A stretch of 64,000 nucleotides of DNA from positions 14,012,001 to 14,076,000 of the forward strand of contig CM097884.1 of the NCBI GenBank assembly GCA_044892505.1, given 5' to 3'. The stretch's first letter is position 1. Every line of letters begins with the position of its first letter. Below, one piece after another: positions 14,290 through 34,605 of the stretch. The position numbers and the translations under genes are program-made. The DNA is from Schmidtea nova (taxonomy: Eukaryota). The notes beneath the pieces are model-generated. The model saw only the letters and a program-made list of their open reading frames with translations. It did not search any database and was not told where the DNA came from.

Positions 14290-14880
14290 ATGTCAGCCAA
14301 CACAGCAACTAACCAAGCCGAATTAGACAAAGCATGGAGAATAATCCGCAGCCTCGAAAAGGAAATGCTGCGAAAATCAGAGAAAATAAAAGAAGCCGAT
14401 GGAATAATTACCAACCTAAAGAAAAGCTGGTTCAGTCCAGAACAAATGAAAATGCAAATCACCAAAACTCAACGCTCACAGCGAGCTAACAGCGAACTGC
14501 AAATGGAATTGGACGCAACGAAGATGGAATTAAAGAAATGCCTAAAATCTGTAACGGCATCATATCTAACTCAAGAGCTCAGCCAGCTCATTCGACCAAT
14601 CACTTATCAGCATTGGGCTGACGAAAAGGCAGGATGCTCAAAAGGAACAAGCACAGAGGAACCATCTCAGGTTCAAGCAACGGCGGCCTCCATCACACCA
14701 AAGGACGTAATAATTCCAGAAGTCAAGAAGAAAAAGAAGAGTAAGATGGGCGCACGTCAGCGACGCTGGAAGAAACAAGTTCTTCAGCAATTGGCTCAAC
14801 AATCCAAAGAAATTCCAGAAATTGATTTGAACATGAATTTTGCAATATCAGATGAAGATATTACCAAATACTTTGAATAG
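14290..14880 (+). CDS. LTR-encoded 196-aa coiled-coil protein with basic K/R motif (ORF-B)
   Basis: Intact ORF with TTTTAG|AAAATG immediately upstream; homologous to 36976-37575 and 43738-44199. Confidence 0.8.
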   Translation: MSANTATNQAELDKAWRIIRSLEKEMLRKSEKIKEADGIITNLKKSWFSPEQMKMQITKTQRSQRANSELQMELDATKMELKKCLKSVTASYLTQELSQLIRPITYQHWADEKAGCSKGTSTEEPSQVQATAASITPKDVIIPEVKKKKKSKMGARQRRWKKQVLQQLAQQSKEIPEIDLNMNFAISDEDITKYFE

Positions 14881-15194
14881 GAATTTTGTGATTTGTAAAT
14901 TTTGCTTATTAAATAATTTTTGTTTTGTATTTATCTTATTGTAAAGTATATGAACTAAAGTATTTTATTAAAGGATTTTTAAATTAAATTAAATGTAGAT
15001 TATAAATAAAAGATTGACATAAAGTAATGAACAATAATAGCATTAAAGAAATAACATATCGTAAAAATATTATTTGTTGATATTGTAAAGAAGGGGGCTG
15101 AAAGAAAGTTGAAAGTGGAAATATATTGTAACGAAAGGGGGCGAAAAGAGATAATTGAAATGAAAGATAATGGATGCGGATAGATTAAAATTAA

Positions 15195-15390
15195 AGCGTA
15201 AGTCCTTCTATCGGCAGCGAGACGAACCCGTGAACATAAATGGGGAGTAGTTTTAGCAATAGAGCTCACCTGCCCATCATTGTTCAAACACCTTGCACAT
15301 TTCCAACTCGATTATTACAGGGAAATGATCGAGGGTGCTCGTGTGATATGTAAGCATTTTATGTGAGGTTTTGGATGGAGGAATCCCTAG
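15195..15390 (+). ncRNA. Conserved structured RNA element near the LTR 3' end (copy in 3' LTR at 31943-32138)
   Basis: Alignable to 36668-36858 (-) and 44396-44572 (+) with compensatory base-pair changes (see findings). Confidence 0.6.
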
Positions 15391-15458
15391 AGCGTTTAAG
15401 AATAATTATTAATTTTGTATTTTTGTTTTAACCCAATCCGAAACCAACAACATAAATT

Positions 15459-15476
15459 TGGGGGCTCAGCCGGGAA
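15459..15476 (+). promoter_or_regulatory. Primer binding site, tRNA-Pro type
   Basis: TGGGGGCTCAGCCGGGAA, close to the canonical tRNA-Pro PBS TGGGGGCTCGTCCGGGAT; located 9 nt after the LTR end. Confidence 0.8.
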
Positions 15477-15615
15477 TCAAATTGGTTTTTGTGCGAAAAA
15501 TTGAATCCAACAATAACAGGGAGTTTTAAAGTGCCCCTCAGCCGGGATGAAAATGGTTTTTGTGCGAAAAATTGAATCCAATAATAACCAGGAGTTTTAA
15601 AGTGCCCCTCAGCCG
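15465..15615 (+). repeat. ~72-bp tandem duplication containing the PBS core CTCAGCCG(GGA)
   Basis: Units start at 15465, 15537 and 15608 (last one partial). Confidence 0.85.
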
Positions 15616-15915
15616 AAAACATAATTGATTTTGTATAAAAGTGAAAACAATATCAACAGAGAATTTTGAAAAACAACTATTGAATAAATATAACAACAGA
15701 CGACTAATAATTGATATTAAAAATGAAATAAATAAACATAAATAAATATGTCGGGACGACAATTTGATGAAGCAGGGAGAGGTTTAACATCAGAAAACGA
15801 AATGTACCACTACTTTTAAATAATACAAATCGAGCAAATAGAGAAACAAGATGTTGAAATTTTTATTTTTAACAAATAAAACAGCAAATATATTAATAAT
15901 ATCAACTATTTAGCA

Positions 15916-16377
15916 ATGAACGACAAATTAAAAGAAATAGAAGAATTCTTAAACACTGAAAACAAAACATACGATGAACTATGCGAGAAAATAAGTCGAA
16001 TAAGAGAATCCGGATTCAAAGAACCCATGACACAAACCGAAGAGACAACAGAGCTGATAAAAATAATGGAAAGAGTTGACAAAATAGATATTACTACTAG
16101 ATATAAATGGTACCAAGCGAGATTGGAAAACGCTGAGTTAAATATAAAATGCAGACAGCTAGAGCAACAATTAACTTCAACATACAACAAGTGGACGATA
16201 CAAGGAACTGAGACAGCTAAGAAATTTAAACTATGTTACATATGTCGAGAAAGGGAGAATAAAATCATGTTTTTACCATGTGGACATTTTCGGTTTTGTG
16301 GAATCTGTGCAGCCAATTGCGACAAATGCCCGATGTGCAATCTCGAAATAGACGAAAGAATTATTGTGTATTTATAA
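15916..16377 (+). CDS. Coiled-coil + C-terminal IAP/MDM2-type C3HC4 RING protein (153 aa)
   Basis: CYICRERENKIMFLPCGHFRFCGICAANCDKCPMCNLEIDERIIVYL at the extreme C-terminus; TTTAG|CAATG upstream. Confidence 0.85.
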   Translation: MNDKLKEIEEFLNTENKTYDELCEKISRIRESGFKEPMTQTEETTELIKIMERVDKIDITTRYKWYQARLENAELNIKCRQLEQQLTSTYNKWTIQGTETAKKFKLCYICRERENKIMFLPCGHFRFCGICAANCDKCPMCNLEIDERIIVYL

Positions 16378-16418
16378 TAAATAAATTTTGAAATTGAATA
16401 ATATGATTTGTGATAAAG

Positions 16419-16590
16419 GATAATGAGAATTAAGATGACAATTCATAATGAGAATTAATATGAGAATTCATAATGAGAATTGATATGAGAATTCATAATA
16501 GGAATTAATATGAGAAAGGATAATGAGAATTAATATGATACTTGATAATGAGAATTAATAATGAGAATTTAAAATGAGAGTTGATAATGG
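16419..16590 (+). repeat. 12-13-bp minisatellite (ATGAGAATT core)
   Basis: Direct reading. Confidence 0.85.
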
Positions 16591-17029
16591 CAATGACAGA
16601 AATCATAATAACAATTGATATTTATAAATAATTTTTGAGCTGCTCACGAGTAGTCCGTTAAGCACCCATTGGGAGGAACCAACTGATCAACTTACCCGAG
16701 ATGTATAGAAAGGGGCCCATCGCGGATATTGGAAAGCTTTTGTGATGTGACTGATCACCACATCTTGCATTAGTAGACCAATGCGATCTTTTTGTATATT
16801 TTGGTTGGGGTGAAAGGTAGGGACAATCTAATGAGGTTTAAGTGCATGCAGAAAATACAAATAAAAATGAGAGAATAGAACACTGATCAGTGAAAGTCGA
16901 AAGAACATTAAGAAAATAAGTGGAATGAAAGTTAATGTGATAACTCTCATAACAATAGAGATAATTCAGCTGAATGATAACTAGTGAAGTGGATAATTGC
17001 GGTTAACCGGTTAAAGAGATTAGTTAAAT

Positions 17030-17725
17030 ACCTTGTATAAAAAGGTCAAGGGCAAATAAGCCATATTAGTTACTCTGAAAGAAGGGTCAAGGGCAAATAA
17101 GCCATATTAGTTACTCTGAAAGAAGGGTCAAGGGCCAACGAGCCGTATTAGTTAATTACTCTGAAAGAAGGGTCAAGGGCCAACGAGCCGTATTAGTTAA
17201 TTACTCTGAAAGAAGGGTCAAGGGCCAACGAGCCGTATTAGTTAATTACTCTGAAAGAAGGGTCAAGGGCCAACGAGCCGTATTAGTTAATTACTCTGAA
17301 AGAAGGGTCAAGGGCCAACAAGCCGTATTAGTTAATTACTCTGAAAGAAGGGTCAAGGGCCAACGAGCCGTATTAGTTAATTACTCTGAAAGAAGGGTCA
17401 AGGGCCAACGAGCCGTATTAGTTGAATACTCTGAAAGAAGAGTCAAGGGCAAACAAGCCAGATGAGTTAAATACCTTGTACAAAAAGGTCAAGGGCCAAC
17501 GAGCCATATTAGTTGAATACTCTGAAAAAAGAGTCAAGGGCAAACAAGCCAGATGAGTAAATACCTTGTACAAAAAGGTCAAGGGCCAACGAGCCATATT
17601 AGTCAAATACTCTGAAAGAAGAGTCAAGGGCAAACAAGCCATATTAGTTAAATACCTTGTAAAAAAAGGTCAAGAGCAAACAAGTCAGATTATTTAAGAT
17701 TACCCCGAAAGAAGGGTCAAAGGCC
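17030..17725 (+). repeat. 41-46-bp tandem array (~16 units; core unit 45 bp)
   Basis: ACTCTGAAAGAAGGGTCAAGGGCCAACGAGCCGTATTAGTTAATT recurs at 17113, 17158, 17203 and onward. Confidence 0.95.
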
Positions 17726-18584
17726 TAACTAAGCAGGTGATTATTCTCTAAGAAGGTATTTTCCCTAGAGAAGGGCCATGGAGTCAAGCGAATAAATTAA
17801 ATTAGGGCATAGAAGAGCCAAGTGAATAAGTGAATAAATTAGAGAAGAGCCAAGTGAATAAATTAAATTATGGCGTAGAGAGCCAAGGGAATAAATAAGC
17901 AACAGAGATGAAATAAAACCAAGTTGTAATCGTCGACGATGTTAAGAGTAATGAGCACTAGAAATTAAGTAATACGAGTAAAGATGATTAAGTAAACTAG
18001 AGATTCAGTATGCATACGAGTAGAAATAGGAATAAGAGAAATTAGAGTTGACCGGAAAAACCGGTAGAAATAGTGAGAATAATGAATAATGATGAGAAAT
18101 TAGAGATGACTGGAAAATTTGATAGGAATAGTGAGAATAGTGAGTAATGATGATATAATGAATAGTGATAAAATGATAATTGAGTCAGGAGAACTCAAGG
18201 GAATTAAAGCGTTTGAGCGACAAATTAAATTGGGAGACTGAGGGAAAAGTAACGAATTTATTTGATAACGATAGATAATTATTACGACCATATAGATAAT
18301 TGTTACCAGTGAATAGATAATTTAAATAGACTTAAATAAAGGGGAAACCGGGAATGGGGAAACAATGGAAACCCAATAATGAGGAATAAAAGCGCAACGA
18401 TAACAATGATGTATCGTTGAAGTGACTTTTTAATTTAGATATACGGAACAGAACAAGTCAAACAACCAGCCAATCAATCAGAATACGATAACAGAGAAAC
18501 AGAAAAATTGATAAATCAAAGAAAAGTAAACCGAGATCAAGAACAGTTAAAAATCAAGAAGTCAATAATTCACAAAGAAATAAA

Positions 18585-21500
18585 TTGAGATCAAGAGCAG
18601 TTAGTGCTACAATCGAAAAAGTTGATAATTCACAGAGAAATAAATCGAAACAAAGAGCAACCAGTGCTACAAAGAAAACAAATCCTAAAGGAAGTAAATC
18701 AAGAAGAGTAATAGTAGAAAAGTCAAAAGTCGAAAACAGTAAATTTGCTAAAACTAACGAAAGTGAAACAGAAGAAAGTTTAAGTGAAACCTACGATAAG
18801 TATAATAATACGGAAGCATCAGATAACGAGTCAATAAACACAGAAGAAGTAGAAGCAGAAATTGATAATAATTCAAACGAAACGAATAACGAGCATACTA
18901 GTGAAACAAGAGGAAACGAGAGTAAAACGACTCAAGACAGCGGAATTGAAATGAACGAGCATAAAGAAGAAATCAAAGATAAATTTACTGGAGAACCATT
19001 CAATGGAGATGCCAGCAAGTTAGAAACGTTCTTAAAAGAATTTGGTATATTTGTAGAAGTGTGTAAATGGAAACCAGAAACGATAAGAAGCAGAATTCAG
19101 TTATATTTAAAAGACAGTGCGTTAGACTTATATTTAGAAGCTAAAAATTCGGATGATCAACTCGATAGTTGGGAAAAGATAAAGAATTTTTTCCAGCAAA
19201 CGTTTGGAATAAATAAAGTATTAAATGAAGCGTTTACAGAATTTTCAATGAGGAAACAAAAAGTTAATGAATCAAATGCAGTATATGCAAGTGAATTAAA
19301 GAAATTGGCTAAATTGGCATTTAATCAAAATAGTCCAATGAGTCCAGAATTAATGGCAGCAATTTTTGTGGGGGGATTGAGAAGACCCGATATAAGAGCA
19401 CAAGTTGGATGCCAAGGTTGTAAAACAATAGATGAAGCGTTGGAAATCGCTAACAGATTTGAATTACATATGATCGGAAGTGAAGGAAGAATTTACCTAG
19501 CAATGGATACGACACAAAATGAACAAGCAATGAAGATAAACAATCATATTCCGAATTCACAACAATTAAACCGACCACCACCTCAAAGGAGAAATGAGGG
19601 AAACAAAGTACAAAATTTCGGAAACCAAAATAATTATAATACGCAAGGACAGACAAAGCAATGTCAAACCTGTGGAAAGTTAGGACATTGGCAACAAGAA
19701 TGTTTCGCGAATTTAAATTGTAAAAAGTGTGGAAGAAAAGGACATTCGGAAAGTAGATGTTACCTGAATTCATGTTATAACTGTGGACAACCAGGTCATA
19801 TGGCAAAGAATTGCCAACAACAAAACAACCAACAAAGGAATTGGTCGAACAACGGAAATCGACAAAGTTATGCGAATCAACAGAATAACGGAAACCGTCA
19901 GAATTATGAAAATCAACAGAGTAATTATAACCAGAACAAAAGTACCACCAAAGAGATACATTTATTACAAGAAGTTCAGAGATTGACAGAGTTAATAAAC
20001 AATACACCGAGAGGAAATCAACAAACGAATCAACAACAAATGAATATGATGAGAAAAGTAGAAAGTGAAAATGAACGACTAAACCGAGAAAGTCAAGCAC
20101 GACATGCTCAAGAATGGGCAAGAATACAAAGAGAAGACGAACAGAAACGACAAGAAAGAGAACGACAACCATTGAGAATTAATATGATGAGAGCAGCGAA
20201 TCAAACAAGAGATAACAAAGAAGATATTGAACCAGAAACAAACCAGATAAACCCAAATCCGGAAGATGAAGAAAACCAAAAAGAAAAAGTACAAGAAAAC
20301 GAAGAAGATATTGAACAAAAAAGGATGTTGGTAGTCATGCCAAACGATCATGTATTTCGATTTGAATATGATGAAAAAGAGGAAGTAGAAGTATTAATTA
20401 ATAAAGTAAACAAGACGATTCCGGGAACGACGAAACTACCCCGAGAAGCATTCTTACAGACAGAAGACGAAGCAGCAATAAAATTAAAACCAACTGACAT
20501 ATGGAAAGATTTAGGAGTACCAATGAATAAAATGAAAGTCACAGTTATCCAAGAAATAGAAGAAAATAACGATGAAGAGAAATCAAAACCAGTAACAAAA
20601 GTCAAAAGTAGAGCATTGAAGATATTTGAAGAGAAAATCAAACAGAGAAAAGCAATGGAGATAGAAAAACGAAGAGGCCAAATAGAAGAATCAGGAAACA
20701 ATGACAAAAAGGAAGAAATACCACCAAACAGTATACCAGAAAACTATGAACTTAGACGATGTAGAAGTATGGATCCGCAAGGAGATTCACTCACAATTGC
20801 AGTCATGTCATCAAATACAGGACCAGTATTAACTACAACCATAGAAATAAATGGAAAAGAAATAGAAGCGATGATAGATACAGGAGCAAACATTTCGGCG
20901 ATAGATGTTAAATGGATACCGCAAGAACAGAGACAAGAAATTGAAAGAACAAATGTTCATGTAATAGCATGTAGTAAAGAGATTGTTGAAGTTGCAGGAA
21001 GATGGTGGGTAAAAATACGACACCAAAATATAGAAATCGAAACGTATGTAGCAGTAATACCAGCTTTAAGCGTACCATGTATAATCGGAACAGATTTAAT
21101 GCCAACACTATTCAAAGAAATAATCATCGATCTTGGAACAATGAGATTAAAGGACAGAACAGGGAAAATATGTGCCATGAAAACAAAAGTAATAAACTCG
21201 AAACAAATAATGATACCGGAAGAGAGAATCATGACGAGATCACAAACCATCAGAATAAATATGCTCAGAGCGGAAGAAATTAACACAACTAGTCAAGTAG
21301 ACAGTGAGAAAATCGATGTTGACAAAGAAATCGTACGGAAAGCCAAAGAAATAAACGAAAGATGGGAAATCAGACAAGAAAAAGACGTATTATGGGATAT
21401 ACGACAAATAATTAGTGATTACGCACGAGGATGCCCAACCAAACCAATCATAATAGAATTATTAAAGAAAATACCAGAGATACTCGTATTACAAGATACA

Positions 21501-24500
21501 GGAGGTGCAACTGCACTGCACAATGCCATAAGTTGGGGTAAAACAGAAAAGGTAAAAGAATTCTTGAAAATAGCAAAAGAAACGAATCAAAATCTAGACA
21601 TTGTAAATCGAGAATTAGAAACGCCAATGATGACAGCAACACTAAGCTTAGCAGATAAAGAAATAGTAGATATGCTGATTAACGCAGAATTCAACTGGAC
21701 AGCTCGGGATAGAAGAGGAAACACAGTTTTAAATCATGCAATAATGAGTGAAAATCAAATGATACTAAAACATATAACAACCAACCTCACATGGGAAATC
21801 GATGAATTAATCAAAGGAGAAATTATGAAGGAAGCGATTCGGAAAGGAAACACTAAAACAATATGGAAACTAATACAATGGAAATGGCCGGATAATAAAA
21901 CATGGGTATTAGATATAAACAAAGAATTTAGCGAAGGACAGAATGCACTATTGAGATACTTATTAGAGTTTACGTGCGATCAGAGAACGATGTTAGCACT
22001 AATAAATAGAGGAAAAATAAATATTAGTAAAAACGAAGAGGAATATAAACTAGAAGTTGAAAAGAAAGCTTTATTCAGGAAAATTTGGGTATGGTGTCAA
22101 AAACAAATACGCAAAGACATAAGCTACAAAAATCTAAATGATTTCCAAGAAAAGTATAAGATAATAATAAAGGAATACAAGAAGCTAGTGGAGATATTAA
22201 ACGATCCAGAAAAATTTAATCAAGCAATAAATCAGAAAGAAGAAGAAAGTAAAAGGATACTCACACCATTGTTCAACGCGAAGATAGATTATCAAGAAAG
22301 ATTGGATGCAATACACAAAAAAGCAAAGGAACTATTACCAGAATTCAAAGATACTAAATACGCCTTGGAAATACTAGGCGCGATAGTAGAAAAAGTACAC
22401 GCGTACGCGAAAGGAATGTATAATGGAGATGATATAATAACTATAAAAAGAGAAATGCCAGTTGCGTTTTTATTAACAAAAGAAAGAATAATACCGATTC
22501 ATAGAGCATTGAGAGCAGGAAAAGACGGTAAAGTAATCGAAATCGCAAGATTAATGCATCAATGTGGATGTGATATGAATATGATAGATGAAAAAGGAGA
22601 CACCCTTATGGTATACGCAGCAAGAGCAAAAACAAAAATCAAAGTATTAGAAGAGTTATATAAAGCAGGCGCAGGATTAATCGGAAAAACTGTCAAAGAC
22701 AACTCAATATTAGACGTGACATTATTAGGTCCAAATTGGGAAATGTTGAATTTCATTAAAACGATAACAAACCAAGAAGAGATAGATTATTTAACAGAAA
22801 CCGTAAAAAGACCAAGTGTATTGACAATGATGCAAAACATCAAATTGACAGAAGAAGTATTAAACTGGAAAATACCAAATACAAATAAACCAGCATTTAA
22901 AGTTAACAAGTTTATGGAGAATAATCGAAATTGGTGTATCCAAAGCGCACTAATAACTTATATATGGCCTGAAATTGTAGAAATTTTCATGAGAAGAGAA
23001 GACCTGAGATTTACAAACAAGCCTAAAGAAACGGAAAAGGTAGTCAAATGGAAAGAACTGATGAGAACACACCTTCAAAGTTGGATAAAAGCCAAGAAAG
23101 AAATTATACAGTATCAGTTAGACAACAAAAAGATACCCGAAGATATAGAATTCCAAGAATTTGAAGCAAGTAACTTAACCTCATTATATTATGCAAAACT
23201 AATAGAAACAAGTAATGTCGAGGACGACATTTTTAACGAGCCAGGGAGAGATAATAATACTGACAAAGACGATGACGATGAAGAAAACAATGACGACGAG
23301 AGAAATAAAGACGATGATGATGAAAATAATCACGGAAACCCAGATAACCACGAGCAAACCAACAAAGAAGACGAGAATCAAGAGAGAAATACAAAGAACC
23401 AAGAATCCAAAGAACAAAGAGAAGACAACCCTAAAAACAATCATGAAAACAAAGGAACAAGTTACAGAAGGAATCCATTATTCAGACCAGAAGTATTAAT
23501 GTTCGCAATAATCATAACACTTATGGGACAATGTGAAGCAACGAAACAAGAGATATCAGTAGAAATGGGAGTACCAATACAAAAAGCATCAACACAGATA
23601 ATGAATTCAAAGGATATTGAACAAGTATGTTGGGTAAAAGAGAATGAAATTCTCGGAGATAACAACCTATTACGATGTATAATACCAAACCCCGAGCGAA
23701 AAACTATAATAATAGACGAAATGGACATGGAAACATGGTACAGAATATGTACAATCAGAAAACCTAAAGACGAAAAATCACACAAGACAGTTACATGCCA
23801 AGTATACAAGACACCCAAAGTTCGATACGAGTTCGCCAATGGAATAGACCTTCCAGGACCATTTTATTTTAAAATAACAAGAGAACCAGCATCAAGAAAA
23901 GTCTTACAACAACCAAGAACCAAGATAACAACACCAAGTATAAGGAATACAACGGATAAACCAGAAACAAACAGAAGAAATACAACGGATAAACCAGAAC
24001 CAAAAAGACGAACGAAACAAACCACAAGAGTAATCTATAATTCCAAGTTGTTATGTATAGCACTTATTATGACAATACTGAAGCGATTAGAAGAAGGAAT
24101 AGAAATGGATACGATGACACTAATAGACATGGAAGAGACACAAATAACAAATCAAAAATGTTGGTTTAGAAATGATGAAAAATTAGAATTAAAGGAATCA
24201 AGAGAAATTCGAAAATTAGAAGCGGGTAAAACGAACAAAGTAATCAAGATAATAAAGATAAAAACAGACAGAATTCATAAACTATGTTTATTGGAAAAAG
24301 AGAGAAACAAGAAAGGAATAACCAATTGTAAAACATTCCAAGCAGGGAAAATAATAACGTTCGCAAGAAAAATGGGGAAAAGAAACAAACAAAATTTCCA
24401 GAAATTAACCATAACGTTAGAAATAACGGGAATAGAACAAAACGTAAACGGAGTATGCTGGAGAAAATACGAGAAAGAAGCAAATAAACACAAATCATCA

Positions 24501-25463
24501 CAATGTCAAACAATCAGAGGAACAACTGCAGTACAAATAAAAAGCTTAGAAAGAAATCAAACGTATGAAATATGCCTAGTAAAAGAAAATGATCAAATAA
24601 CGAAAGAAGATTTAGAATGCAGAATATACAGAGCACCGAACAGAATAAAAACCATTAAAGCAATACGAAAGAATAAAAGACAACAAAAACCGAAGCATAC
24701 CACTACCGAAAGTCAAACAGAACCAGAGAGGAAAACCTCAGCAACACTTATACTTTGGAAACTAGATAACAAAACAGTAGAAATATGTTGGACAATGATC
24801 AAGAAATATGAAGAAAGACAACCACAACAATGCGAAAAGATGAACAAAGAAGAGGAGATCAGAATTCAGAACCTACAATTGGACAAACAATACGAAATAT
24901 GCGCAATAGAAAAGGCAGATAAATTTGGAAACCAGCAAGAAAAATGTGGAAACTACTATACACCGACAAATACAACGATCAAAGGAAGAATCAAGAAACT
25001 AACTTTCGGAGAATTGAATCAAACAACGAAACAAATGGAAAACGAGGAAACAATAATAGATTCTTATGCACAATGGAAACCAGAAAAAGTAATCCAGGAA
25101 GTCAAAAGGAAACAACAAGAACGACAACAATTGGAACTCAAATTGAAAGGACAATATGGACCAATGATCAATCAAAGCAAATTCACCCAAATCAATGTTA
25201 ACAAGCAAGGAAGAGAATTAATCGGAGTAGGAATACTGGCAGTATGCGTACCAGTAATAATAATACTATCAATAATATGGCTATGGGACATAATAAAAAA
25301 GAAACCAACCAGACAATGGCCAGATATAAAGATTATGAATTGTAAAATCAAGATACCAGAAGAAGTAAAGAAAGAATTCCAAAGAAGAACCAAAGGCAAA
25401 GAATTTTGGAAGCAGATCGAAGACGAGGAGCGACACGATGAAAAGGCAGTGATGATAGTATAG
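18585..25463 (+). CDS. Gag(3xCCHC)-Ubl-like-aspartic protease-ankyrin-FN3-like-TM polyprotein (start uncertain; first in-frame ATG at 18951)
   Basis: Capsid-like FNGDASKLETFLKEF; CCHC x3 (19662-19814); MIDTGA...IIGTD protease (~20822-21150); ankyrin-like repeats (~21490-21780 and ~22490-22765); signal-like segment (~23490-23540); Cys-containing FN3-like repeats; TM segment (~25218-25286). Confidence 0.88.
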   Translation: MRSRAVSATIEKVDNSQRNKSKQRATSATKKTNPKGSKSRRVIVEKSKVENSKFAKTNESETEESLSETYDKYNNTEASDNESINTEEVEAEIDNNSNETNNEHTSETRGNESKTTQDSGIEMNEHKEEIKDKFTGEPFNGDASKLETFLKEFGIFVEVCKWKPETIRSRIQLYLKDSALDLYLEAKNSDDQLDSWEKIKNFFQQTFGINKVLNEAFTEFSMRKQKVNESNAVYASELKKLAKLAFNQNSPMSPELMAAIFVGGLRRPDIRAQVGCQGCKTIDEALEIANRFELHMIGSEGRIYLAMDTTQNEQAMKINNHIPNSQQLNRPPPQRRNEGNKVQNFGNQNNYNTQGQTKQCQTCGKLGHWQQECFANLNCKKCGRKGHSESRCYLNSCYNCGQPGHMAKNCQQQNNQQRNWSNNGNRQSYANQQNNGNRQNYENQQSNYNQNKSTTKEIHLLQEVQRLTELINNTPRGNQQTNQQQMNMMRKVESENERLNRESQARHAQEWARIQREDEQKRQERERQPLRINMMRAANQTRDNKEDIEPETNQINPNPEDEENQKEKVQENEEDIEQKRMLVVMPNDHVFRFEYDEKEEVEVLINKVNKTIPGTTKLPREAFLQTEDEAAIKLKPTDIWKDLGVPMNKMKVTVIQEIEENNDEEKSKPVTKVKSRALKIFEEKIKQRKAMEIEKRRGQIEESGNNDKKEEIPPNSIPENYELRRCRSMDPQGDSLTIAVMSSNTGPVLTTTIEINGKEIEAMIDTGANISAIDVKWIPQEQRQEIERTNVHVIACSKEIVEVAGRWWVKIRHQNIEIETYVAVIPALSVPCIIGTDLMPTLFKEIIIDLGTMRLKDRTGKICAMKTKVINSKQIMIPEERIMTRSQTIRINMLRAEEINTTSQVDSEKIDVDKEIVRKAKEINERWEIRQEKDVLWDIRQIISDYARGCPTKPIIIELLKKIPEILVLQDTGGATALHNAISWGKTEKVKEFLKIAKETNQNLDIVNRELETPMMTATLSLADKEIVDMLINAEFNWTARDRRGNTVLNHAIMSENQMILKHITTNLTWEIDELIKGEIMKEAIRKGNTKTIWKLIQWKWPDNKTWVLDINKEFSEGQNALLRYLLEFTCDQRTMLALINRGKINISKNEEEYKLEVEKKALFRKIWVWCQKQIRKDISYKNLNDFQEKYKIIIKEYKKLVEILNDPEKFNQAINQKEEESKRILTPLFNAKIDYQERLDAIHKKAKELLPEFKDTKYALEILGAIVEKVHAYAKGMYNGDDIITIKREMPVAFLLTKERIIPIHRALRAGKDGKVIEIARLMHQCGCDMNMIDEKGDTLMVYAARAKTKIKVLEELYKAGAGLIGKTVKDNSILDVTLLGPNWEMLNFIKTITNQEEIDYLTETVKRPSVLTMMQNIKLTEEVLNWKIPNTNKPAFKVNKFMENNRNWCIQSALITYIWPEIVEIFMRREDLRFTNKPKETEKVVKWKELMRTHLQSWIKAKKEIIQYQLDNKKIPEDIEFQEFEASNLTSLYYAKLIETSNVEDDIFNEPGRDNNTDKDDDDEENNDDERNKDDDDENNHGNPDNHEQTNKEDENQERNTKNQESKEQREDNPKNNHENKGTSYRRNPLFRPEVLMFAIIITLMGQCEATKQEISVEMGVPIQKASTQIMNSKDIEQVCWVKENEILGDNNLLRCIIPNPERKTIIIDEMDMETWYRICTIRKPKDEKSHKTVTCQVYKTPKVRYEFANGIDLPGPFYFKITREPASRKVLQQPRTKITTPSIRNTTDKPETNRRNTTDKPEPKRRTKQTTRVIYNSKLLCIALIMTILKRLEEGIEMDTMTLIDMEETQITNQKCWFRNDEKLELKESREIRKLEAGKTNKVIKIIKIKTDRIHKLCLLEKERNKKGITNCKTFQAGKIITFARKMGKRNKQNFQKLTITLEITGIEQNVNGVCWRKYEKEANKHKSSQCQTIRGTTAVQIKSLERNQTYEICLVKENDQITKEDLECRIYRAPNRIKTIKAIRKNKRQQKPKHTTTESQTEPERKTSATLILWKLDNKTVEICWTMIKKYEERQPQQCEKMNKEEEIRIQNLQLDKQYEICAIEKADKFGNQQEKCGNYYTPTNTTIKGRIKKLTFGELNQTTKQMENEETIIDSYAQWKPEKVIQEVKRKQQERQQLELKLKGQYGPMINQSKFTQINVNKQGRELIGVGILAVCVPVIIILSIIWLWDIIKKKPTRQWPDIKIMNCKIKIPEEVKKEFQRRTKGKEFWKQIEDEERHDEKAVMIV

Positions 25464-25585
25464 AGGGTGGGATATGACTGTAAATAATATTGTAAATTAC
25501 AAAGCATTACCGTATATAGTATGGGTATTAGTATTATAGAGTATATAAAAAGAGAAAAGAGAAAAATAATAATGTATTTTAGAAA

Positions 25586-25921
25586 ATGAATGTACAAGGA
25601 GAAACAACCGAAATGACTATGACTATGCGATGGAAAGCACAATGTGAAACGTTAGTTCGATCAATTAATGCACTACAGAATCAATTGGTAGAGAAGCAAA
25701 ATATATTAGCAGATTGTTACAACAATATCTTTGAGCAGTTACATAAAATAGAAGAGCAACAGAAAATAATAACAGAACTAACCAGAGAGAATCAAAGATT
25801 GAGACAAACGATGGAAATAAATCAACTAACAAGAAGAGATGAATCAGAAGGTCAATGGCTAGATTGGGTAATAAATGGATTAGAGAATGATATAGAACCA
25901 GATTCAACGAGCGAACCATAG
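25586..25921 (+). CDS. 111-aa coiled-coil protein of unknown function
   Basis: Intact ORF, heptad-like pattern, TTTTAG|AAAATG upstream. Confidence 0.6.
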   Translation: MNVQGETTEMTMTMRWKAQCETLVRSINALQNQLVEKQNILADCYNNIFEQLHKIEEQQKIITELTRENQRLRQTMEINQLTRRDESEGQWLDWVINGLENDIEPDSTSEP

Positions 25922-26018
25922 TCAAATTGTAGCGGAAAATTGTATATATGTAAAAATAACAACTCTAGAAAAATCAAAAACAAAGAACAAATCAATGTAT
26001 GTATATATTATTGTAGAA

Positions 26019-27374
26019 ATGGATAAAGAGGAACGAGCAGTCGAGATTTTGAGAGCAGCAAACAGAAATTGGAACAAGAGATTTGTATGTGGATATTGTA
26101 ATAATTTATTACGGAAACCAAAGCAAACCGCCTGTGGATGTAGATTATGCACTAGATGTGTACAAATGTTAGAGTTAAAAGGAATAACAGAATGTCCAGA
26201 ATGTAAAGAAGGACAAATAGTGTTAGACGAAACGAGACCAGATAGAGCAACTCAGAGAGAAATCATGAGCATATTAATTGAATGTATAAATCCACCATGC
26301 ATATGGCAAGGACAAATCAGTGAAATTGAAAATCATATAGAAAATTGTGAAGAAAAGAGAAGCGAATGTGAAAAGTGTAAAGAAACGATAATTTTAAAAG
26401 ACAAAGAGAAACACAGAGATGAATGCAAAGAGGAAGAAATCGCATGTGAATATTGCGAAATTCGAGAAACAAGGAGAAAAATTGAAGAGGAGCACATCAA
26501 TATAAAAGAAGAGAAAATATGTGAACAGTATGTAGGAGTGTGCCCAAACAAATGTGAAATTACCGAAGAAGTGAAATTACGAGAACATTGGGAAAAGTGT
26601 ACAGAAATACCAAGAGAATGTCCTTACAACAGATATGGATGCAAGGAAAAGAAGTCTCAACAAAATATGAAACAACATTTAGAAACAGAAGCAATCAATC
26701 ATATTGAAATGACAGACAGAACAATTCAGAAATTGGAAAAAGAAGTGGAATCTCATAAAATAATGATGAACCTATTATTAGAAACGAGAGAACAGTTTGA
26801 ATTAACCCGAGGAAGGATGGAAAAGAAAATAATAGCCATCAAGGAATTAGCAAAAGGAATGAAAGTGCAATATAACAAGTTAATACAAGAAATTGATGAG
26901 AAAAAAGATTTACCAATAGCACCTTATGTGTGGAAAATAACGGATTTCCGAAATAAATTGGAAGATGCACGAAGCTTCAAGAAAACTGCGGTAATAAGCC
27001 CACCATTTTACTTATGGAAAAACGGGGCTAAAGTGAGATTGAAAGTATATCCAAACGGAGATGGGACAAGTATGGGAAAACACCTATCAATATTTTTTGC
27101 GTTTTGCAAAGGAGAATATGACGATTTAATCGATTGGCCGATAGGAGTAGGAGTAATGATAAAAATCAGGGGTTTAAACGAAACCATAGAAAAGAGATTC
27201 ACGACAGACAAAGGAGCAGTTACGAGTAACAGACCAACAGAAGAATGTGGATTAGCAAGTGGAGAACCACACTTTGTATTACAAAGCAAGATATGGGGAT
27301 TATTGTATGAGGACACCTTATACATAGAAATGGAAAGGAACGAAAAGGCAGATAGAAAAGGATGGTTGGCGTAG
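26019..27374 (+). CDS. Intronless TRAF-family protein (RING, zinc fingers, coiled coil, MATH/TRAF-C)
   Basis: RING CGYC...CGCRLCTRC...CPEC; TRAF zinc finger PDRATQREIMSILIEC..PCIWQGQISEIENHIENC; TRAF-C YVWKITDF...SPPFY...VYPNGDG..GKHLSIFF...GEYDDLIDWP. Start placed at 26019 (TGTAG|AAATG) rather than the track's 25995. Confidence 0.92.
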   Translation: MDKEERAVEILRAANRNWNKRFVCGYCNNLLRKPKQTACGCRLCTRCVQMLELKGITECPECKEGQIVLDETRPDRATQREIMSILIECINPPCIWQGQISEIENHIENCEEKRSECEKCKETIILKDKEKHRDECKEEEIACEYCEIRETRRKIEEEHINIKEEKICEQYVGVCPNKCEITEEVKLREHWEKCTEIPRECPYNRYGCKEKKSQQNMKQHLETEAINHIEMTDRTIQKLEKEVESHKIMMNLLLETREQFELTRGRMEKKIIAIKELAKGMKVQYNKLIQEIDEKKDLPIAPYVWKITDFRNKLEDARSFKKTAVISPPFYLWKNGAKVRLKVYPNGDGTSMGKHLSIFFAFCKGEYDDLIDWPIGVGVMIKIRGLNETIEKRFTTDKGAVTSNRPTEECGLASGEPHFVLQSKIWGLLYEDTLYIEMERNEKADRKGWLA

Positions 27375-27478
27375 CAAGAGAAAATGATCGTGTAAATAAA
27401 CTGTACAAAACAATATAAAATGATAAATAAACAAAATAATAAAAGTAGCCTGATTGAAAATATTTGTAATTATAGAAA

Positions 27479-28582
27479 ATGGGAAACGTCGAAATCAGTT
27501 TACAAGCAGTAACCGCACATCAAGATGAAGTTATTTGTGAGCATTTAGAACAAATTGAAAGTTGGATCCACGCATATTACCACAAACAAAAAGAAGTAGA
27601 AAGACAAGCCGAACAAATAACAGAAGCCAAAAGATTAAAGCAATTAAGTCAAGATAAAATAGACGAATTATATGAATTATTGGAGAAACAAAAAGAATAT
27701 TATAAAAAGATGATGAAAGAACGACGAGAAGAAAGAGAGCGAGAACGAACAGAAATGGAACGAAAAATGTACTCGATTACCGAGCAAGCAAGATATTGGA
27801 AAAAAGAAGCGAAAGAATCTTATACGAAAGCAAGAGAAATAATCGAAAGAACGGCGTACAGCGATGATTGGAAGTTATTTGAAGAAATCGATAAATTAAA
27901 AGAGGAATTAGAACAGAAAACCTATCAGGAAATATCGAGCAAGAAATGGAATATAAAGAGACAACAATTCATCAGAGAGCAAGCAGGAAAAATTAAACAA
28001 CTTCTGCACCAGATTGAAAGATCGGAAAGAGAATTATATTTCAGTAAACAACAATCCGATGCAAACCTCAGAGCAGGGATGCAGAAAGAGGAAGATATGA
28101 AGCGCGATATTAATGGTTATCAAGGAGTAATCACTCAAAAGAAGATAGAGTTAAAGAAAACTAAAGAAAGATTAGAAGAAACAAAACAAAGCTATGAAGA
28201 AAATTTATTAAAATTAGAAGAAGCAAAACAAAGCTATGAGGAAAATTTATTAAATCTAACCAAAGAAAATGAAGAGTTGAAACAAAAACTGATACAAAAA
28301 TTAACACCACCAAAAGAGACAGATATCACCAAAGCAGTAATAAAAATGATGGAAGAGGAAGAGAAAAACAATAAAATAACAGAATTAGAAAAACGGATCG
28401 AAGCGTTAACAGAACAATCAAATTATTTAGAATATCTGTTAGACGAAGAAATCCAATTATCACACTTCTATCGAGATGAAGTAACAATGTGGAGAAACAC
28501 GATAGTATGGTTACCACCCCCTACAAACCAAGTGGAACCTCAAGATGAAGGTTTTCACGAACCCAATGAGTCGTTAGTATAA
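27479..28582 (+). CDS. 367-aa long coiled-coil protein
   Basis: Intact E/K-rich ORF with internal repeat KQSYEENLL x2; TTATAG|AAAATG upstream. Confidence 0.7.
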   Translation: MGNVEISLQAVTAHQDEVICEHLEQIESWIHAYYHKQKEVERQAEQITEAKRLKQLSQDKIDELYELLEKQKEYYKKMMKERREERERERTEMERKMYSITEQARYWKKEAKESYTKAREIIERTAYSDDWKLFEEIDKLKEELEQKTYQEISSKKWNIKRQQFIREQAGKIKQLLHQIERSERELYFSKQQSDANLRAGMQKEEDMKRDINGYQGVITQKKIELKKTKERLEETKQSYEENLLKLEEAKQSYEENLLNLTKENEELKQKLIQKLTPPKETDITKAVIKMMEEEEKNNKITELEKRIEALTEQSNYLEYLLDEEIQLSHFYRDEVTMWRNTIVWLPPPTNQVEPQDEGFHEPNESLV

Positions 28583-28657
28583 AAGAAGTGCGAAAATTAG
28601 TTGTAAATATCTGTAACATAACAATGTCAAACTGTATTGACAAATTTGTAAAGTGAA

Positions 28658-29221
28658 ATGAAGAAGCTCGCAATACTGATAATCCTAAACGTAATCGAGA
28701 TCACCCAACAAAGAGAAGACCGTCCGATATTAAAAGAAAACCTACAAGTCTTACCCGAAAAAATCTATAAAGAAATAGATAATCTATTAAAAGAAGCAAT
28801 CAAAGAAATATCTCAAATTCAATTGTCAACAGCACCTAACCCAGTATCAACGCAACAAACCCTGTGCAAAATCAATAACAAATTAGAGAAGATTCGAAAA
28901 ACCTTAAAAGAAAGTAAAGAAACTATAAAGAATTTACATCGAGCAGAAATTCAATACCAAGAGAGATGGATCGTTGCGATTATAATCGTATTAACAATTA
29001 GTACAACAACCTGCGCAATTACCATTCTCATCGCAGTATATAGAATAAAGATCCTAAAACAAAAACAATCGATCATCAATCAAACAACAGCATACGATGA
29101 CAATGCCCGAAGACAAATGAGAAATCAGTTCAACAGAATACGAACCCAATACGAGTTACCAGCAATTCCACAGAACCAGTCCAATCCAGTGCGAGTTATG
29201 AACTATTTGTATAAACAATAA
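28658..29221 (+). CDS. 187-aa predicted type-I membrane protein
   Basis: Signal-like MKKLAILIILNVIE, coiled coil, TM WIVAIIIVLTISTTTCAITILIAVY, then basic stop-transfer RIKILK. Confidence 0.7.
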   Translation: MKKLAILIILNVIEITQQREDRPILKENLQVLPEKIYKEIDNLLKEAIKEISQIQLSTAPNPVSTQQTLCKINNKLEKIRKTLKESKETIKNLHRAEIQYQERWIVAIIIVLTISTTTCAITILIAVYRIKILKQKQSIINQTTAYDDNARRQMRNQFNRIRTQYELPAIPQNQSNPVRVMNYLYKQ

Positions 29222-29380
29222 AGACGTGACAAAATATTTGATTAACAATTTTCTGAATTTTCTATATTTTCTTCGTGATTACGTATAGACTAAACTCACC
29301 TTATGTGAATCTTTATGCTTATGTATCAAACGTAAAATTTTTTATGAATGTTGAGTATAAGTAATAGTGTATAATTAATT

Positions 29381-29411
29381 GCGGGACGCAATTTTAGGGG
29401 TCCCCGAGTGA
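29381..29411 (+). promoter_or_regulatory. Atypical PPT region before the 3' LTR
   Basis: GCGGGACGCAATTTTAGGGGTCCCCGAGTGA directly abuts TGTTGG; only a short purine run. Confidence 0.45.
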
Positions 29412-32197
29412 TGTTGGATCCACCATTTGGTCCACATTTAGCATAAAAAATAATAATAATAAGAGAGAAAATAAGAATAAATTAAAATAAATATAATTAT
29501 GAAAATATCAGTAAAAACGAATTAAAATGTAATAAAGAATATTAATTTAATATAAAAAAATTGGAAGAAAATAAATGTATAATGTAAAAACGTTAAAGAA
29601 AATGATATTTAATTATATTTAAATAATAAGAAAGCGAAATAAATAAGTAAAAAAGAAGAAGAATTAATAAAAATTCGATAAATTAAAACCAGAAAATGCA
29701 AATCATATTTGCTAATAAAATTGATTTTATTTTTAATAGAATTGCATTGATGACCATCAGATTGATGCTGATTGGTCAATGAACTGATCTGGTCAGTATA
29801 AATACTGATCCAGATTCAGATATTTTTAATGTTTTTGTGATTGAAAAATTTTTTCTTTGTATTGCTATATACAAACTTTGGAAACTAATAGGTATGAGTA
29901 TTTTTGTTTTATTGAATTTATAAATTTTATGATTATCTGTCATTGACCATTGTAGTTAATTATTAATAAAATATTTTATGATATATGATTTTTAAATTTT
30001 TGTCGAGTATAGAATTAAACCCAGCTTCTTCCACTGTGAAATCAGTGGAAGGAGATGACTATATTTATATATTATATATCTTTTATTAAGCTTCTTCCAT
30101 CGTGTAATCGGTGGAAGGAGGTAACAGTATCAGTTTATACTAACAACTAACAAGTATATTTTTTAGAAGTAATTTTTGGGTCGAGCTTCTTCCACTGTGT
30201 AATCAGTGGAAGGAGGCGTATATATATTATCTATATACCGTATTTATAGTATAAAATTACGTATGATTTAAGGGGCTCCGTTCACCGTGCAATCGGGAAC
30301 ATGGAGGCATACTGTGCCGAGTAGAAACGACTGCTCCGTACAGTTAGGCCGTCCGACCGGTGTAAAGCGCCGTGACGAGGGTAGGAATGTTATTTTTGAT
30401 TTCTAACCTTATTTTTCACTGGATAGTATAACCAGTTGAAGTTTTATTTTCTAACCGATTTAGTTTTTCATGAGTGTATAGTTAAATTGAGTTTTGATTT
30501 TAGTTGGATACAGATGTAACTGCGATTTGAGTAATCTGATTTTACCTTGAGATTCACAGAGTGTTAGCGTACATTTTTCGATGGTCACATCTGGGGTTTG
30601 TGGGCATAGAGCGGCAGATACACGGTTAAGAATCTGTACAAAATATAATTTTAATAACAACATAAAAATCGATAATGCTAACAACGTAGTGATCTACTAC
30701 GCAAGTAACATAGCAGCAATAGGCTATAGGTTCAAACATTCCACCTAAATAATTAAACATAATTGCTTATCCTGAACCCTGTACATAGGGCAGTGGATCT
30801 TAGTTTATTTTAATAACTTTCTTATCCTGAATGCTGTATATAGCACAGGCGTAACTAAATAAAATGCATTATGAAATAAATGTATCTGATCGCTGTATAT
30901 AGCGACAGTGTTGAAAGCGTAATAGGTACATCATTTTCTTTTCCTAAATTAACAATTACCAATTGTCAAAAGTATGAGAATCGTTCGAATCAAGACTACT
31001 AATTTCATGTTAATAAACCAATTTCGAATTTTAGAAAATGTCAGCCAACACAGCAACTAACCAAGCCGAATTAGACAAAGCATGGAGAATAATCCGCAGC
31101 CTCGAAAAGGAAATGCTGCGAAAATCAGAGAAAATAAAAGAAGCCGATGGAATAATTACCAACCTAAAGAAAAGCTGGTTCAGTCCAGAACAAATGAAAA
31201 TGCAAATCACCAAAACTCAACGCTCACAGCGAGCTAACAGCGAACTGCAAATGGAATTGGACGCAACGAAGATGGAATTAAAGAAATGCCTAAAATCTGT
31301 AACGGCATCATATCTAACTCAAGAGCTCAGCCAGCTCATTCGACCAATCACTTATCAGCATTGGGCTGACGAAAAGGCAGGATGCTCAAAAGGAACAAGC
31401 ACAGAGGAACCATCTCAGGTTCAAGCAACGGCGGCCTCCATCACACCAAAGGACGTAATAATTCCAGAAGTCAAGAAGAAAAAGAAGAGTAAGATGGGCG
31501 CACGTCAGCGACGCTGGAAGAAACAAGTTCTTCAGCAATTGGCTCAACAATCCAAAGAAATTCCAGAAATTGATTTGAACATGAATTTTGCAATATCAGA
31601 TGAAGATATTACCAAATACTTTGAATAGGAATTTTGTGATTTGTAAATTTTGCTTATTAAATAATTTTTGTTTTGTATTTATCTTATTGTAAAGTATATG
31701 AACTAAAGTATTTTATTAAAGGATTTTTAAATTAAATTAAATGTAGATTATAAATAAAAGATTGACATAAAGTAATGAACAATAATAGCATTAAAGAAAT
31801 AACATATCGTAAAAATATTATTTGTTGATATTGTAAAGAAGGGGGCTGAAAGAAAGTTGAAAGTGGAAATATATTGTAACGAAAGGGGGCGAAAAGAGAT
31901 AATTGAAATGAAAGATAATGGATGCGGATAGATTAAAATTAAAGCGTAAGTCCTTCTATCGGCAGCGAGACGAACCCGTGAACATAAATGGGGAGTAGTT
32001 TTAGCAATAGAGCTCACCTGCCCATCATTGTTCAAACACCTTGCACATTTCCAACTCGATTATTACAGGGAAATGATCGAGGGTGCTCGTGTGATATGTA
32101 AGCATTTTATGTGAGGTTTTGGATGGAGGAATCCCTAGAGCGTTTAAGAATAATTATTAATTTTGTATTTTTGTTTTAACCCAATCCGAAACCAACA
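29412..32197 (+). repeat. 3' LTR (family 1)
   Basis: No differences from the 5' LTR seen by eye; all ORF-track translations in the two LTRs are identical. Confidence 0.95.
31038..31628 (+). CDS. ORF-B copy in the 3' LTR
   Basis: Identical translation to 14290-14880. Confidence 0.8.
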   Translation: MSANTATNQAELDKAWRIIRSLEKEMLRKSEKIKEADGIITNLKKSWFSPEQMKMQITKTQRSQRANSELQMELDATKMELKKCLKSVTASYLTQELSQLIRPITYQHWADEKAGCSKGTSTEEPSQVQATAASITPKDVIIPEVKKKKKSKMGARQRRWKKQVLQQLAQQSKEIPEIDLNMNFAISDEDITKYFE

Positions 32198-34489: not shown

Positions 34490-34605
34490 ATATACGATTT
34501 CGATTGTTAGCGTCTATTGACTCATTCCTCGGCCGATAAAGCGATCGTTAACGCGACACAATTGGCCCAGGATAATGCTTGCACTTGTTTAATTATATTG
34601 ACTCG

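Follow-up and report, generated by a model that had tools for sequence, protein, structure and literature searches.

HIV-1, the foamy viruses and, for env, the Gypsy errantiviruses all use one LTR promoter, a strong 5′ splice donor and several acceptors, with the unspliced RNA as the genome. The retroelement examined in the present work resembles these complex retroviruses in having one predicted LTR promoter, a conserved strong donor and acceptor candidates each placed before an ORF. It differs from them in that its ORFs do not overlap and are followed, at a fixed short distance past the stop, by weak donors that would define gene-sized exons, and in that the LTR itself contains the strong donor, ahead of the primer site. 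We identified no Rev-like export system.

Planarian genomes are full of Burro-type elements, one of which, as reported by Lee 2026 (via the accessible text of PMC13465017), supports the survival of stem cells. In what follows, family A is the element's own, B its sister and E a distant relative. Compared with Burro/GYPSM1 as presented in the accessible part of PMC6431247, the likeness lies in the huge polyprotein of the parent family B, with Gag-CCHC, an env-like domain, PR-RT-RH-IN and ankyrin repeats, and in the MATH/TRAF and RING cargo and accessory ORFs of our element. The differences are that our copy measures 19.5 kb against a total above 30 kb, that it is without env, RT, RNase H and integrase, that its TRAF is a separate downstream ORF, that four cargo ORFs (up to eight in family E) are lined up towards the 3′ end, separated by intron-like spacers, and that it has ORFs inside the LTR. 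Moreover, Pfam gave no BIR, BCL2-like, SUMO-like or dUTPase-like domain in the element or the B polyprotein; for some of those Burro domains the same source, in its accessible part, used HHpred.

The row is also similar to the spliced-leader (SL) operons of flatworms and nematodes, as described in the available portions of PMC12582326 and PMC8629364, in its gaps of ~100 nt and in its acceptors directly before the downstream gene. Unlike them, the element has a conserved upstream donor and, in family E, working donors in the gap together with repeated cis-splicing at the acceptors; host operons, according to the same portions, mostly comprise two genes. We found no description in the literature of the spacer grammar or of spliced Burro copies, and the primary Burro papers or their supplements may already describe spliced accessory transcripts. 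Here we show that the spacers follow a common, conserved grammar, that the ORFs are under purifying selection, and that donors and acceptors of this layout have been used in family E, where the spacer losses are exact at splice sites; this last observation is new.

The element and its cargo

The window, a stretch of 64,000 nt from Schmidtea nova, contains a 19.5 kb LTR retroelement (12664..32197) with the cassette of accessory genes at its 3′ end; all stranded features given below are on the + strand. The 5′ LTR (12664..15449; 2786 bp, TG...CA) is 100% identical to the 3′ LTR (29412..32197), and the insertion is therefore very recent. A target-site duplication, ATAC, flanks the element (12660-12663 and 32198-32201). 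The primer-binding-site-like sequence at 15459..15475, which we take to be of the tRNA-Pro type, is common to families A, B and E.

The polyprotein (18951..25463; 2170 aa) consists of Gag with CCHC knuckles, an aspartic protease, ankyrin repeats and a TM tail, and an FN3-like region in it is a lead only, as are all atlas matches below 0.9. Using Pfam, no RT, RNase H or integrase was found in the element, only the protease, whereas the family-B polyprotein is complete for PR-RT-RNase H-integrase, which makes the element of the window a derivative and not an autonomous member. The zf-CCHC Gag is found in both polyproteins, and in B an env-like fusion domain lies between Gag and protease (PF24664, E 8e-72). 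Two in-frame deletions account for the missing env-like segment and the missing RT/RNase H/integrase; at the place of the former, 2/5 other family-A copies retain 5.37 kb. We also considered these deletions as splice-outs, and rejected both: the env junction has ~12 nt of microhomology, and the RT-integrase junction shows no GT..AG against family B. Stops or frameshifts break the giant ORF in those B copies that were read, and one B-type copy has 28.9 kb. Judged by domain make-up against the published description, the element belongs to the Burro-like, env-bearing Gypsy clade as a young, non-autonomous member. An Rfam search of 12000-41000 gave no match.

Pfam places ankyrin, MATH/TRAF and RING cargo in the element. 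Each LTR encodes a 196-aa ORF of no family (14290-14880, second copy at 31038-31628), whose acceptor AG at 14285-14286 is kept in 30/30 LTR loci, and a RING ORF of 153 aa (C3HC4, IAP-like; PF13920, E 1e-11) extends to 16377 behind an acceptor AG at 15912-15913. The row itself starts with a coiled-coil ORF of 111 aa (25586..25921; dN/dS 0.18 against family B), followed by the TRAF-like ORF of 451 aa (26019..27374; dN/dS 0.16), which has RING-like, TRAF zinc-finger and MATH parts (MATH_2, E 2e-21) and a second ATG in the same frame, at 25995, from which family B does not keep the frame open. Next come a second coiled-coil ORF, of 367 aa and no family (27479..28582; dN/dS 0.10), and, as the last ORF, one of 187 aa with signal peptide, coiled coil and TM segment (28658..29221; dN/dS 0.28). 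The 367-aa ORF is 32% identical to a 515-aa ORF of family E, and no homologue of it was found at E 0.001 among near-length candidates. With dN/dS at 0.10-0.28 between A and B, the sequences of the cargo ORFs bear the mark of purifying selection.

Spacer grammar and its conservation

In each spacer the order is stop, 15-19 nt, TGTANATA, a second TGTA, and then an AG 2-4 nt before the ATG. Spacer 1 (25464..25585; 122 nt) has TGTAAATA at 25479, the second TGTA at 25491 and the acceptor AG at 25581-25582; in spacer 2 (25922..26018; 97 nt) TGTATATA is at 25941, with TGTA at 25949 and AG at 26015-26016. The TGTAAATA form returns in spacer 3 (27375..27478; 104 nt) at 27391, with TGTA at 27402 and AG at 27474-27475, and in spacer 4 (28583..28657; 75 nt) at 28602, with TGTA at 28612 and a weak acceptor, AAG, at 28652-28653. 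These measurements agree with the first-pass annotation, which had described spacers of about 75-122 bp between five consecutive ORFs, the same four motif starts and a second TGTA after each; in our measurements this second copy starts 8-12 nt later. The distance between stop and motif is 15, 19, 16 and 19 nt, and the 16, 20, 17 and 20 given earlier are the same gaps counted from the last stop base. The AG claimed before each ATG is indeed there, 3, 2, 3 and 4 nt upstream, with the reservation that the fourth is the weak AAG (GAG, AAG or TAG in family B); the further AGs noted at 14285, 15912, 37578 and 38272 are present as well. The tracts ahead of the AGs are A/T-rich, not pyrimidine-rich, and several spacers have an AATAAA, exact or with one mismatch, that shares bases with the motif or comes after it.

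In the enrichment check proposed along with those claims, run with 5000 dinucleotide shuffles per spacer, an 8-mer starting at offset 10-25 turned up in 0.9-1.9% of cases (product 4e-8, for a motif chosen post hoc) and an AG within the last 6 nt in 16-32% (product over four spacers 2e-3). The motif spacing, the other feature to be looked for in further copies, is kept in family B and recurs in family E, which serves as an out-of-sample case: TGTA stands at +14 to +16 in 7/8 spacers, with the full 8-mer in 6, against 2-3% expected per spacer by shuffle, although shared ancestry is possible and a product would overstate the result. No TGTA occurs in the first 55 nt behind the last ORF of families A, B and E, or behind the RING ORFs. 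Between A and four B-type copies the motif core is identical at 175/176 positions, while the rest of the spacer matches at 1051/1416 (74%) and fourfold sites at 92/151. In 15 spacers the stop-to-motif distance is 14-19 nt (sd 1.7, one B stop coordinate being off by one) and the motif-to-AG distance 51-261 nt. The first 8-mer of spacer 1 is intact in 30/30 family-A loci, and position 5 of the spacer 2 motif is T, G or A among copies.

The invariant letters are exactly UGUA-N-AUA, and the consensus of the Pumilio response element is UGUANAUW (available text of PMC5758885). The match to a Pumilio/PUF site that had been proposed is still plausible: the consensus letters fit in 4/4 window spacers with position 5 free, the location is that of a 3′ UTR, and the host genome has a PUF gene, with 7 PUF repeats at one locus. 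Unlike a Pumilio response element, the window motif overlaps a usable splice donor and is fixed 14-19 nt from the stop. The first 8-mer probably doubles as a Pumilio site, with binding as a prediction. Pairing with U1 accounts for neither the T at −1 nor the A at +5, both of them invariant, and a U1 variant complementary to the motif was sought and not found among the 12 U1 loci read.

Exact spacer losses in family E

Time and again, copies of family E have lost a piece of spacer that begins with the GT of a T|GTA and ends with the AG in front of the following ATG. In a search that fixed the acceptor side only, 43 among 52 distinct junction sequences were exact GT..AG junctions. Before the 515-aa ORF, 21/21 distinct sequences break at a spacer T|GTA (2 at +16, 12 at +27, 6 at +51 and 1 at +91). 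Before the 264-aa ORF, 14/20 are exact, with four more off by one base and two representing AG point changes, and before the 274-aa ORF the figure is 8/11, seven at the +16 8-mer and one from a T|GTA 4.1 kb upstream. All acceptors tested, 3/3, thus have spliced-type losses. A tree of the copies needs 11 changes of label, and the losses therefore arose repeatedly. From their exactness it follows that the E acceptors were used and that TGTA is able to act as a 5′ splice donor; such intron-less genomic copies provide direct, RNA-free proof of splicing at sites of this kind.

The junction filter required a pyrimidine in the last two bases, and T|GTA and AG|GT donors are therefore not comparable. 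We left a 41-nt loss within the last E spacer out of the count: it has 2-nt microhomology, and most unspliced copies are without the inner AG. By their sequence, the TGTA words would double as 5′ splice donors and make the spacer intron-like, a use demonstrated in family E, where it may be cryptic rather than a selected function; the first-pass annotation had not recognised this second role. Spacer losses number 0 against 81 intact in family A and 0 against 256 in family B, and further A/B searches for spliced spacers, run without positive controls, also gave 0. Four read runs over the window have even, DNA-like cover, and in the rows listed neither a GT..AG joint nor an SL-like one occurs.

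Expression of the cargo row

A TATA box with an upstream CCAAT-type box (13049..13056), conserved in 6/6 compared A/B LTRs, is predicted from its sequence to be the single promoter of the element. It is followed by a strong 5′ splice donor, AG|GTATGA (13142..13149), cut between 13143 and 13144 and predicted to be the major donor closing a short leader exon. AGGTAT is kept in 19/19 distinct leaders, in which the length (80-163 nt after the TATA box) and sequence vary freely. Every ORF has an upstream acceptor candidate, the polyprotein included; for the latter, the putative site is an AG at 18437..18438, ~510 nt ahead of the ATG, with a similar site in one family-B copy.

The reading that we lean towards has a single LTR leader cis-spliced to one or another of the acceptors, so that each cargo gene would get a message of its own, in the manner of complex retroviruses. 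A single long transcript would start from the LTR promoter, and the strong LTR donor, which we infer to reach the internal acceptors, would be joined to the acceptor before the chosen ATG. Each spacer would then be an intron-like unit, with weak T|GTA donors 15-30 nt past the stop and the acceptor before the next ATG, and every cargo ORF would be placed exon-like between acceptor and donor; the window's own spacers would be spliced in the same way. Spacers would be retained since a gene that lost its acceptor would fall silent, and their persistence in A and B across dS above 1 is what a need for the acceptor would predict. The first 8-mer, which lies just beyond where the terminating ribosome would reach, would be held invariant by a protein that binds UGUA, Pumilio being the likeliest, and the CELF protein Bruli is a candidate binder for the further UGUA copies.

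Counterpoints to nested cis-splicing are that the leader would have to bypass as many as six upstream acceptors within 12-15 kb, and that the fourth acceptor is weak. Intron-less LTRs were seen at 0/60 LTR loci, and junctions of the leader with an internal acceptor were 0 in a genomic search without positive control and 0/52 among the family-E junction sequences; such spliced RNAs are without the primer site, and the test is therefore largely blind.

Either SL trans-splicing or nested cis-splicing from one LTR donor had been proposed at the outset. The cis option has come out better, with its donor kept in 19/19 leaders, and the SL option has been weakened by the cis-splicing at E acceptors. 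In an SL operon, each spacer would be cut and polyadenylated and each acceptor would receive the host spliced leader, the T|GTA splices of family E being leakage. The 75-122 nt spacers do resemble flatworm operon gaps, with a median of 99 bp in S. mansoni (PMC12582326, available text) and a peak near 100 bp in Macrostomum (PMC8629364, available text), and here too a short gap has its acceptor before the downstream ATG. SL trans-splicing has been described in S. mediterranea (cited in the same text of PMC12582326), AATAAA-type signals lie at or after the motif in several spacers, and the motif is absent behind the last ORF. However, operon acceptors in parasitic flatworms are, by the available text of PMC12582326, strongly guarded against cis-splicing, yet it occurred repeatedly at the E acceptors (none was seen in A/B). 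Selection acts on the strong LTR donor, with four internal poly(A) sites the genomic RNA would be severed before it could be copied, and 0/52 junction sequences end in the flatworm SL terminal ATG, in a weak and largely blind test. SL trans-splicing is thus less likely than cis-splicing from the LTR leader, and on its own we judge it unlikely. The same applies to the idea of a mobile operon, the cargo row with its TRAF-like signalling protein being resolved by the host spliced leader and Pumilio sites dosing each message; if true, a retroelement would have taken over the host trans-splicing machinery, possibly with a stem-cell-enriched leader.

Another option considered was a spliced polycistron, in which the spacers are removed as introns, stop and next ATG come to lie ~20-30 nt apart, and ribosomes re-initiate. 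Exactly this product is fossilised in family E, and since junctions within 50 nt of the stop avoid junction-triggered decay, the main donors, all within that distance, would escape it. Spacer loss would in that case be harmless and irreversible, yet A and B keep their spacers; animal ribosomes re-initiate poorly once they have translated a long ORF; and the E 515-aa ORF has an early stop in 11/21 spliced copies vs 2/8 intact ones (small numbers, not age-matched). We find this quite unlikely, and the same holds for an adenovirus-like unit, where paired UGUA would recruit CFIm, the spacers would be weak poly(A) sites, and the leader would be spliced to the last acceptor before the 3′ end. The CFIm poly(A) element invoked in the first-pass annotation stands as far as the pairing is concerned, with TGTA copies 7-13 nt apart in every non-terminal spacer, and a CFIm25 gene is present in the host genome; in addition, T precedes GTA at 50/63 sites in spacers vs 32/123 in ORFs, and long runs of A, in some cases standing in for other bases, are present in the spacers and the 5′ non-coding DNA and not in ORFs (18 mapped rows). 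Against it, UGUA is not enriched ahead of the poly(A) signals of S. mediterranea, nor was CFIm59/68 found there (PMC5068929, in its available part). A nuclear signal, moreover, has no reason to hold 14-19 nt from the stop, and the A runs, which slippage can make, are not clustered in position, a search for poly(A)-capture footprints giving 1 match. As for the idea that each spacer has a promoter of its own or an internal ribosome entry site, with incidental motifs, A/T-rich spacers could contain TATA-like words; the exact GT..AG losses in E, the conserved acceptors and the lack of folded structure (z 0.25-1.43 over the four spacers) make this very improbable.

If one LTR leader is indeed spliced to each acceptor, the unit of acceptor, ORF, stop, 15 nt and donor/PUF word would be a reusable gene-joining module that lets cargo genes be added in a row, and expression of the element would be linked to Pumilio and CELF/Bruli, which are planarian stem-cell regulators.

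Two further families, C and D, have a 3.4k-aa ORF, 850-bp LTRs and one accessory ORF behind a 400-nt gap.

The LTR element and its spacers

The flagged stretch (25463-28660) is the 3′ portion of a single LTR element, which is flanked by a 4-bp target duplication and carries a sequence resembling a primer site; its 5′ LTR (12664-15449) and 3′ LTR (29412-32197) are identical. The element encodes a polyprotein of 2170 aa (Gag-protease-ankyrin-TM) that lacks RT, RNase H and integrase, a RING ORF, and a 196-aa ORF inside each LTR. It also has four cargo ORFs, whose products measure 111, 451, 367 and 187 aa, the second being TRAF-like. Its family, called A, numbers at least 81 copies in the genome, and the sister family B at least 92. 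The TRAF of B is 72% identical to that of A, and besides the same four cargo ORFs B has an env-like fusion domain as well as the RT, RNase H and integrase that the window element lacks. The window element is a derivative with a double in-frame deletion. At the env position, 5.37 kb is retained in two of the five other family A copies examined, and no extra DNA was found at the RT position in these five, where the alignment covered it. The layout agrees with that of the planarian Burro/GYPSM1 elements, as far as the available part of their description goes (PMC6431247), and this likeness points to a planarian host. Both the element class and the cargo domains are already known.

Some further features of the element can be mentioned here. 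The C-terminal part of the polyprotein (23478-25460) resembles a surface protein with signal, FN3-like repeats and TM (atlas score 0.79, a lead only), and the 5′ non-coding region contains a 45-nt tandem array (17017-17725) whose unit length varies among copies. Whole elements form tandem arrays with periods of ca 33 kb and ca 17 kb at G000:C1 590.84-590.94 Mb and 302.10-302.18 Mb.

The spacers between the polyprotein and the cargo ORFs share one order: TGTANATA comes 15-19 nt after the stop codon, a further TGTA follows 8-12 nt later, and A-rich DNA then leads to an AG set 2-4 nt before the ATG. The spacer, motif and AG positions of the first-pass annotation were all correct on re-checking the sequence, this grammar exceeds chance against shuffled sequence, and the motif spacing is kept in family B and in most spacers of family E, a distant relative (ankyrin region 24-29% identical) with TGTA at +14 to +16 after the stop in seven of eight spacers. 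Between the window and four B-type copies, 175/176 positions of the motif core are identical, compared to 1051/1416 in the rest of the spacers and 92/151 fourfold sites, and the cargo ORFs have dN/dS of 0.10-0.28; these comparisons indicate that the grammar is under selection. Position 5 of the 8-mer can be A, T or G among copies. Over 15 spacers, the distance of the motif to the stop is 14-19 nt, while that to the AG is 51-261 nt, and the motif is absent behind the last ORF in families A, B and E.

Runs of 13-26 A were also observed in spacers (loci L005, L006, L025, L060, L095-L098, L104, L106-L108), some in place of non-A bases, and they can be due to either slippage or captured poly(A) tails.

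Spliced genomic copies in family E

Since retroelements copy their own RNA, splicing is expected to leave intron-less copies in the genome. In four family E copies, a similarity search revealed a sharply bounded gap whose end coincides with the AG preceding the last ORF. The genome was then searched with three family E exon starts, requiring the two bases before the exon to include a pyrimidine instead of being AG and leaving the left breakpoint free; this filter is biased to donors preceded by T and is thus uninformative on preference over AG|GT donors.

The search for the 274-aa ORF found 11 matches, compared to 2 in the backwards control. Seven of the 11, from one or two lineages, are missing precisely the stretch between the GT within the +16 TGTAAATA and the AG, both included. 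The other four comprise one joined to a T|GTA 4.1 kb upstream, one AG point change and two with unrelated DNA. The 515-aa ORF gave 51 matches (ca 41 places), and 30 loci read yielded 21 distinct sequences, all with a spacer T|GTA as the breakpoint: the +16 8-mer in 2, the second TGTA in 12, +51 in 6 and +91 in 1, such that 19/21 losses leave the first 8-mer intact. The tree requires 11 label changes, at least five being forced for the +51 class alone, to which recombination between copies could add. For the 264-aa ORF (58 matches, ca 46 places; 20 distinct sequences from 30 loci read), 8/20 are exact at T|GTAAATA and 6/20 at the T|GTA 30 nt past the stop; 4/20 lie within one base of the T|GTAAATA breakpoint, and 2/20 are AG point changes.

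Over the three ORFs, 43 of 52 sequences have exact GT..AG junctions. It follows that, in this clade, the AG preceding the ATG functions as a 3′ splice site, with the TGTA words, including the flagged 8-mer, functioning as 5′ splice sites. The use of TGTA words as splice donors, as read from these junctions, is new here. Our literature search found no description of the spacer grammar or the spliced copies, although Grohme 2018 and Lee 2026 may cover both.

The corresponding searches in families A and B were blank, with 0 spliced against 81 intact for spacer 1, 0 against at least 256 for spacer 3, where the 128 per strand may mark a ceiling, and 0 in further searches run without a positive control. 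Donor use has thus been demonstrated in related elements, not in the four spacers of the window.

Family E elements (L091-L110) are 26 kb long; their LTRs measure 3.66 kb, and they carry as many as eight cargo ORFs. Gain and loss of the cargo genes are modular, and one of the losses is due to recombination between two similar spacers. No RT was found in the copies read.

Candidate readers of the UGUA words

U1 pairing prefers G at −1 and +5, whereas T at −1 and A at +5 are invariant in the spacer motif. T precedes GTA at 50/63 spacer sites, compared to 32/123 sites in ORFs, and none of 12 loci read holds a U1 variant matching the motif. Taken together, these observations make it likely that a UGUA-reading protein acts on the motif. 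The consensus of the Pumilio element is UGUANAUW in the accessible text of PMC5758885. The earlier assignment to Pumilio is plausible in that the first 8-mer matches this consensus and the genome has a PUF gene, with binding being putative. A cytoplasmic site must sit at least ca 15 nt past the stop to escape the ribosome, as known from microRNA sites, and the floor of ca 15 nt seen here fits what a Pumilio-type site would need. According to the part of PMC4978528 consulted, the planarian protein Bruli recognises UGU, and introns that follow the exons it activates show an enrichment of its motifs; it is a candidate reader of the further UGUA copies.

U1 snRNA genes with altered 5′ ends occur alongside canonical ones at L127-L131.

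Expression of the cargo ORFs

The LTR has a conserved predicted CCAAT/TATA promoter, and AG|GTAT is retained 80-163 nt after the TATA in 19/19 distinct leaders that otherwise differ freely. An acceptor candidate lies upstream of each ORF, including the polyprotein. The first-pass annotation had proposed either SL trans-splicing or nested cis-splicing from an LTR donor; with the donor present in 19/19, the latter is the simplest model and the former fits worse. A single transcript with one strong LTR donor and several acceptors would be made, its unspliced form serving as the genome. Weak donors past each stop would delimit each gene as an exon, and would permit removal of the remaining spacers close to the stop. 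Joining of the LTR donor to an internal acceptor would be the step in between; no such junction was seen among the 52 junction sequences or the LTR loci examined, and no leader-acceptor genomic copy is expected, because such an RNA would have no primer site. A lost spacer takes the next gene's acceptor with it, and this would account for the retention of the spacers in families A and B over dS >1, while family E, which is large and without RT in the copies read, tolerates their loss.

Other expression routes were considered, which are partly compatible with one another. Resolution of the cargo genes by SL trans-splicing would fit the gap size and the host group, but it conflicts with the selected LTR donor and, on the evidence of PMC12582326 (section 11), with working donors inside the gap, and we consider it unlikely. 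Re-initiation along a spacer-spliced polycistron has the merit that the spacer-spliced RNA is the product actually fossilised in the genome; it predicts, however, that the spacers should already have been lost, making it quite improbable. We regard CFIm-guided internal polyadenylation as likewise quite improbable: the spacers have paired UGUA and the genome a CFIm25 gene, but S. mediterranea is without UGUA enrichment before poly(A) signals in what is accessible of PMC5068929.

Among LTRs otherwise 84-100% identical, the leader (13075-13143; loci L197-L226) is hypervariable in length and sequence, with the donor fixed. The predicted LTR intron contains three repeated hairpins and three palindromic stems (13275-13477 and 14020-14165) that gave no Rfam match; the stems carry TGTA(C/T)ATA words.

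Elsewhere in the window, a sister-family LTR on the minus strand (ca 36600-39700) is flanked by 320-nt inverted repeats (34603-34924 and 39952-40269) and has two ORFs, one of 139 aa and one of 199 aa that shares 38% identity with the ORF in the window LTR. A long palindrome at 2817-7728 includes a Penelope-like RT + GIY-YIG ORF (6084-7589) and its inverted twin (3795-5294), and a host ORF with an adaptin N-terminal domain (PF01602) is located at 46983-48944.
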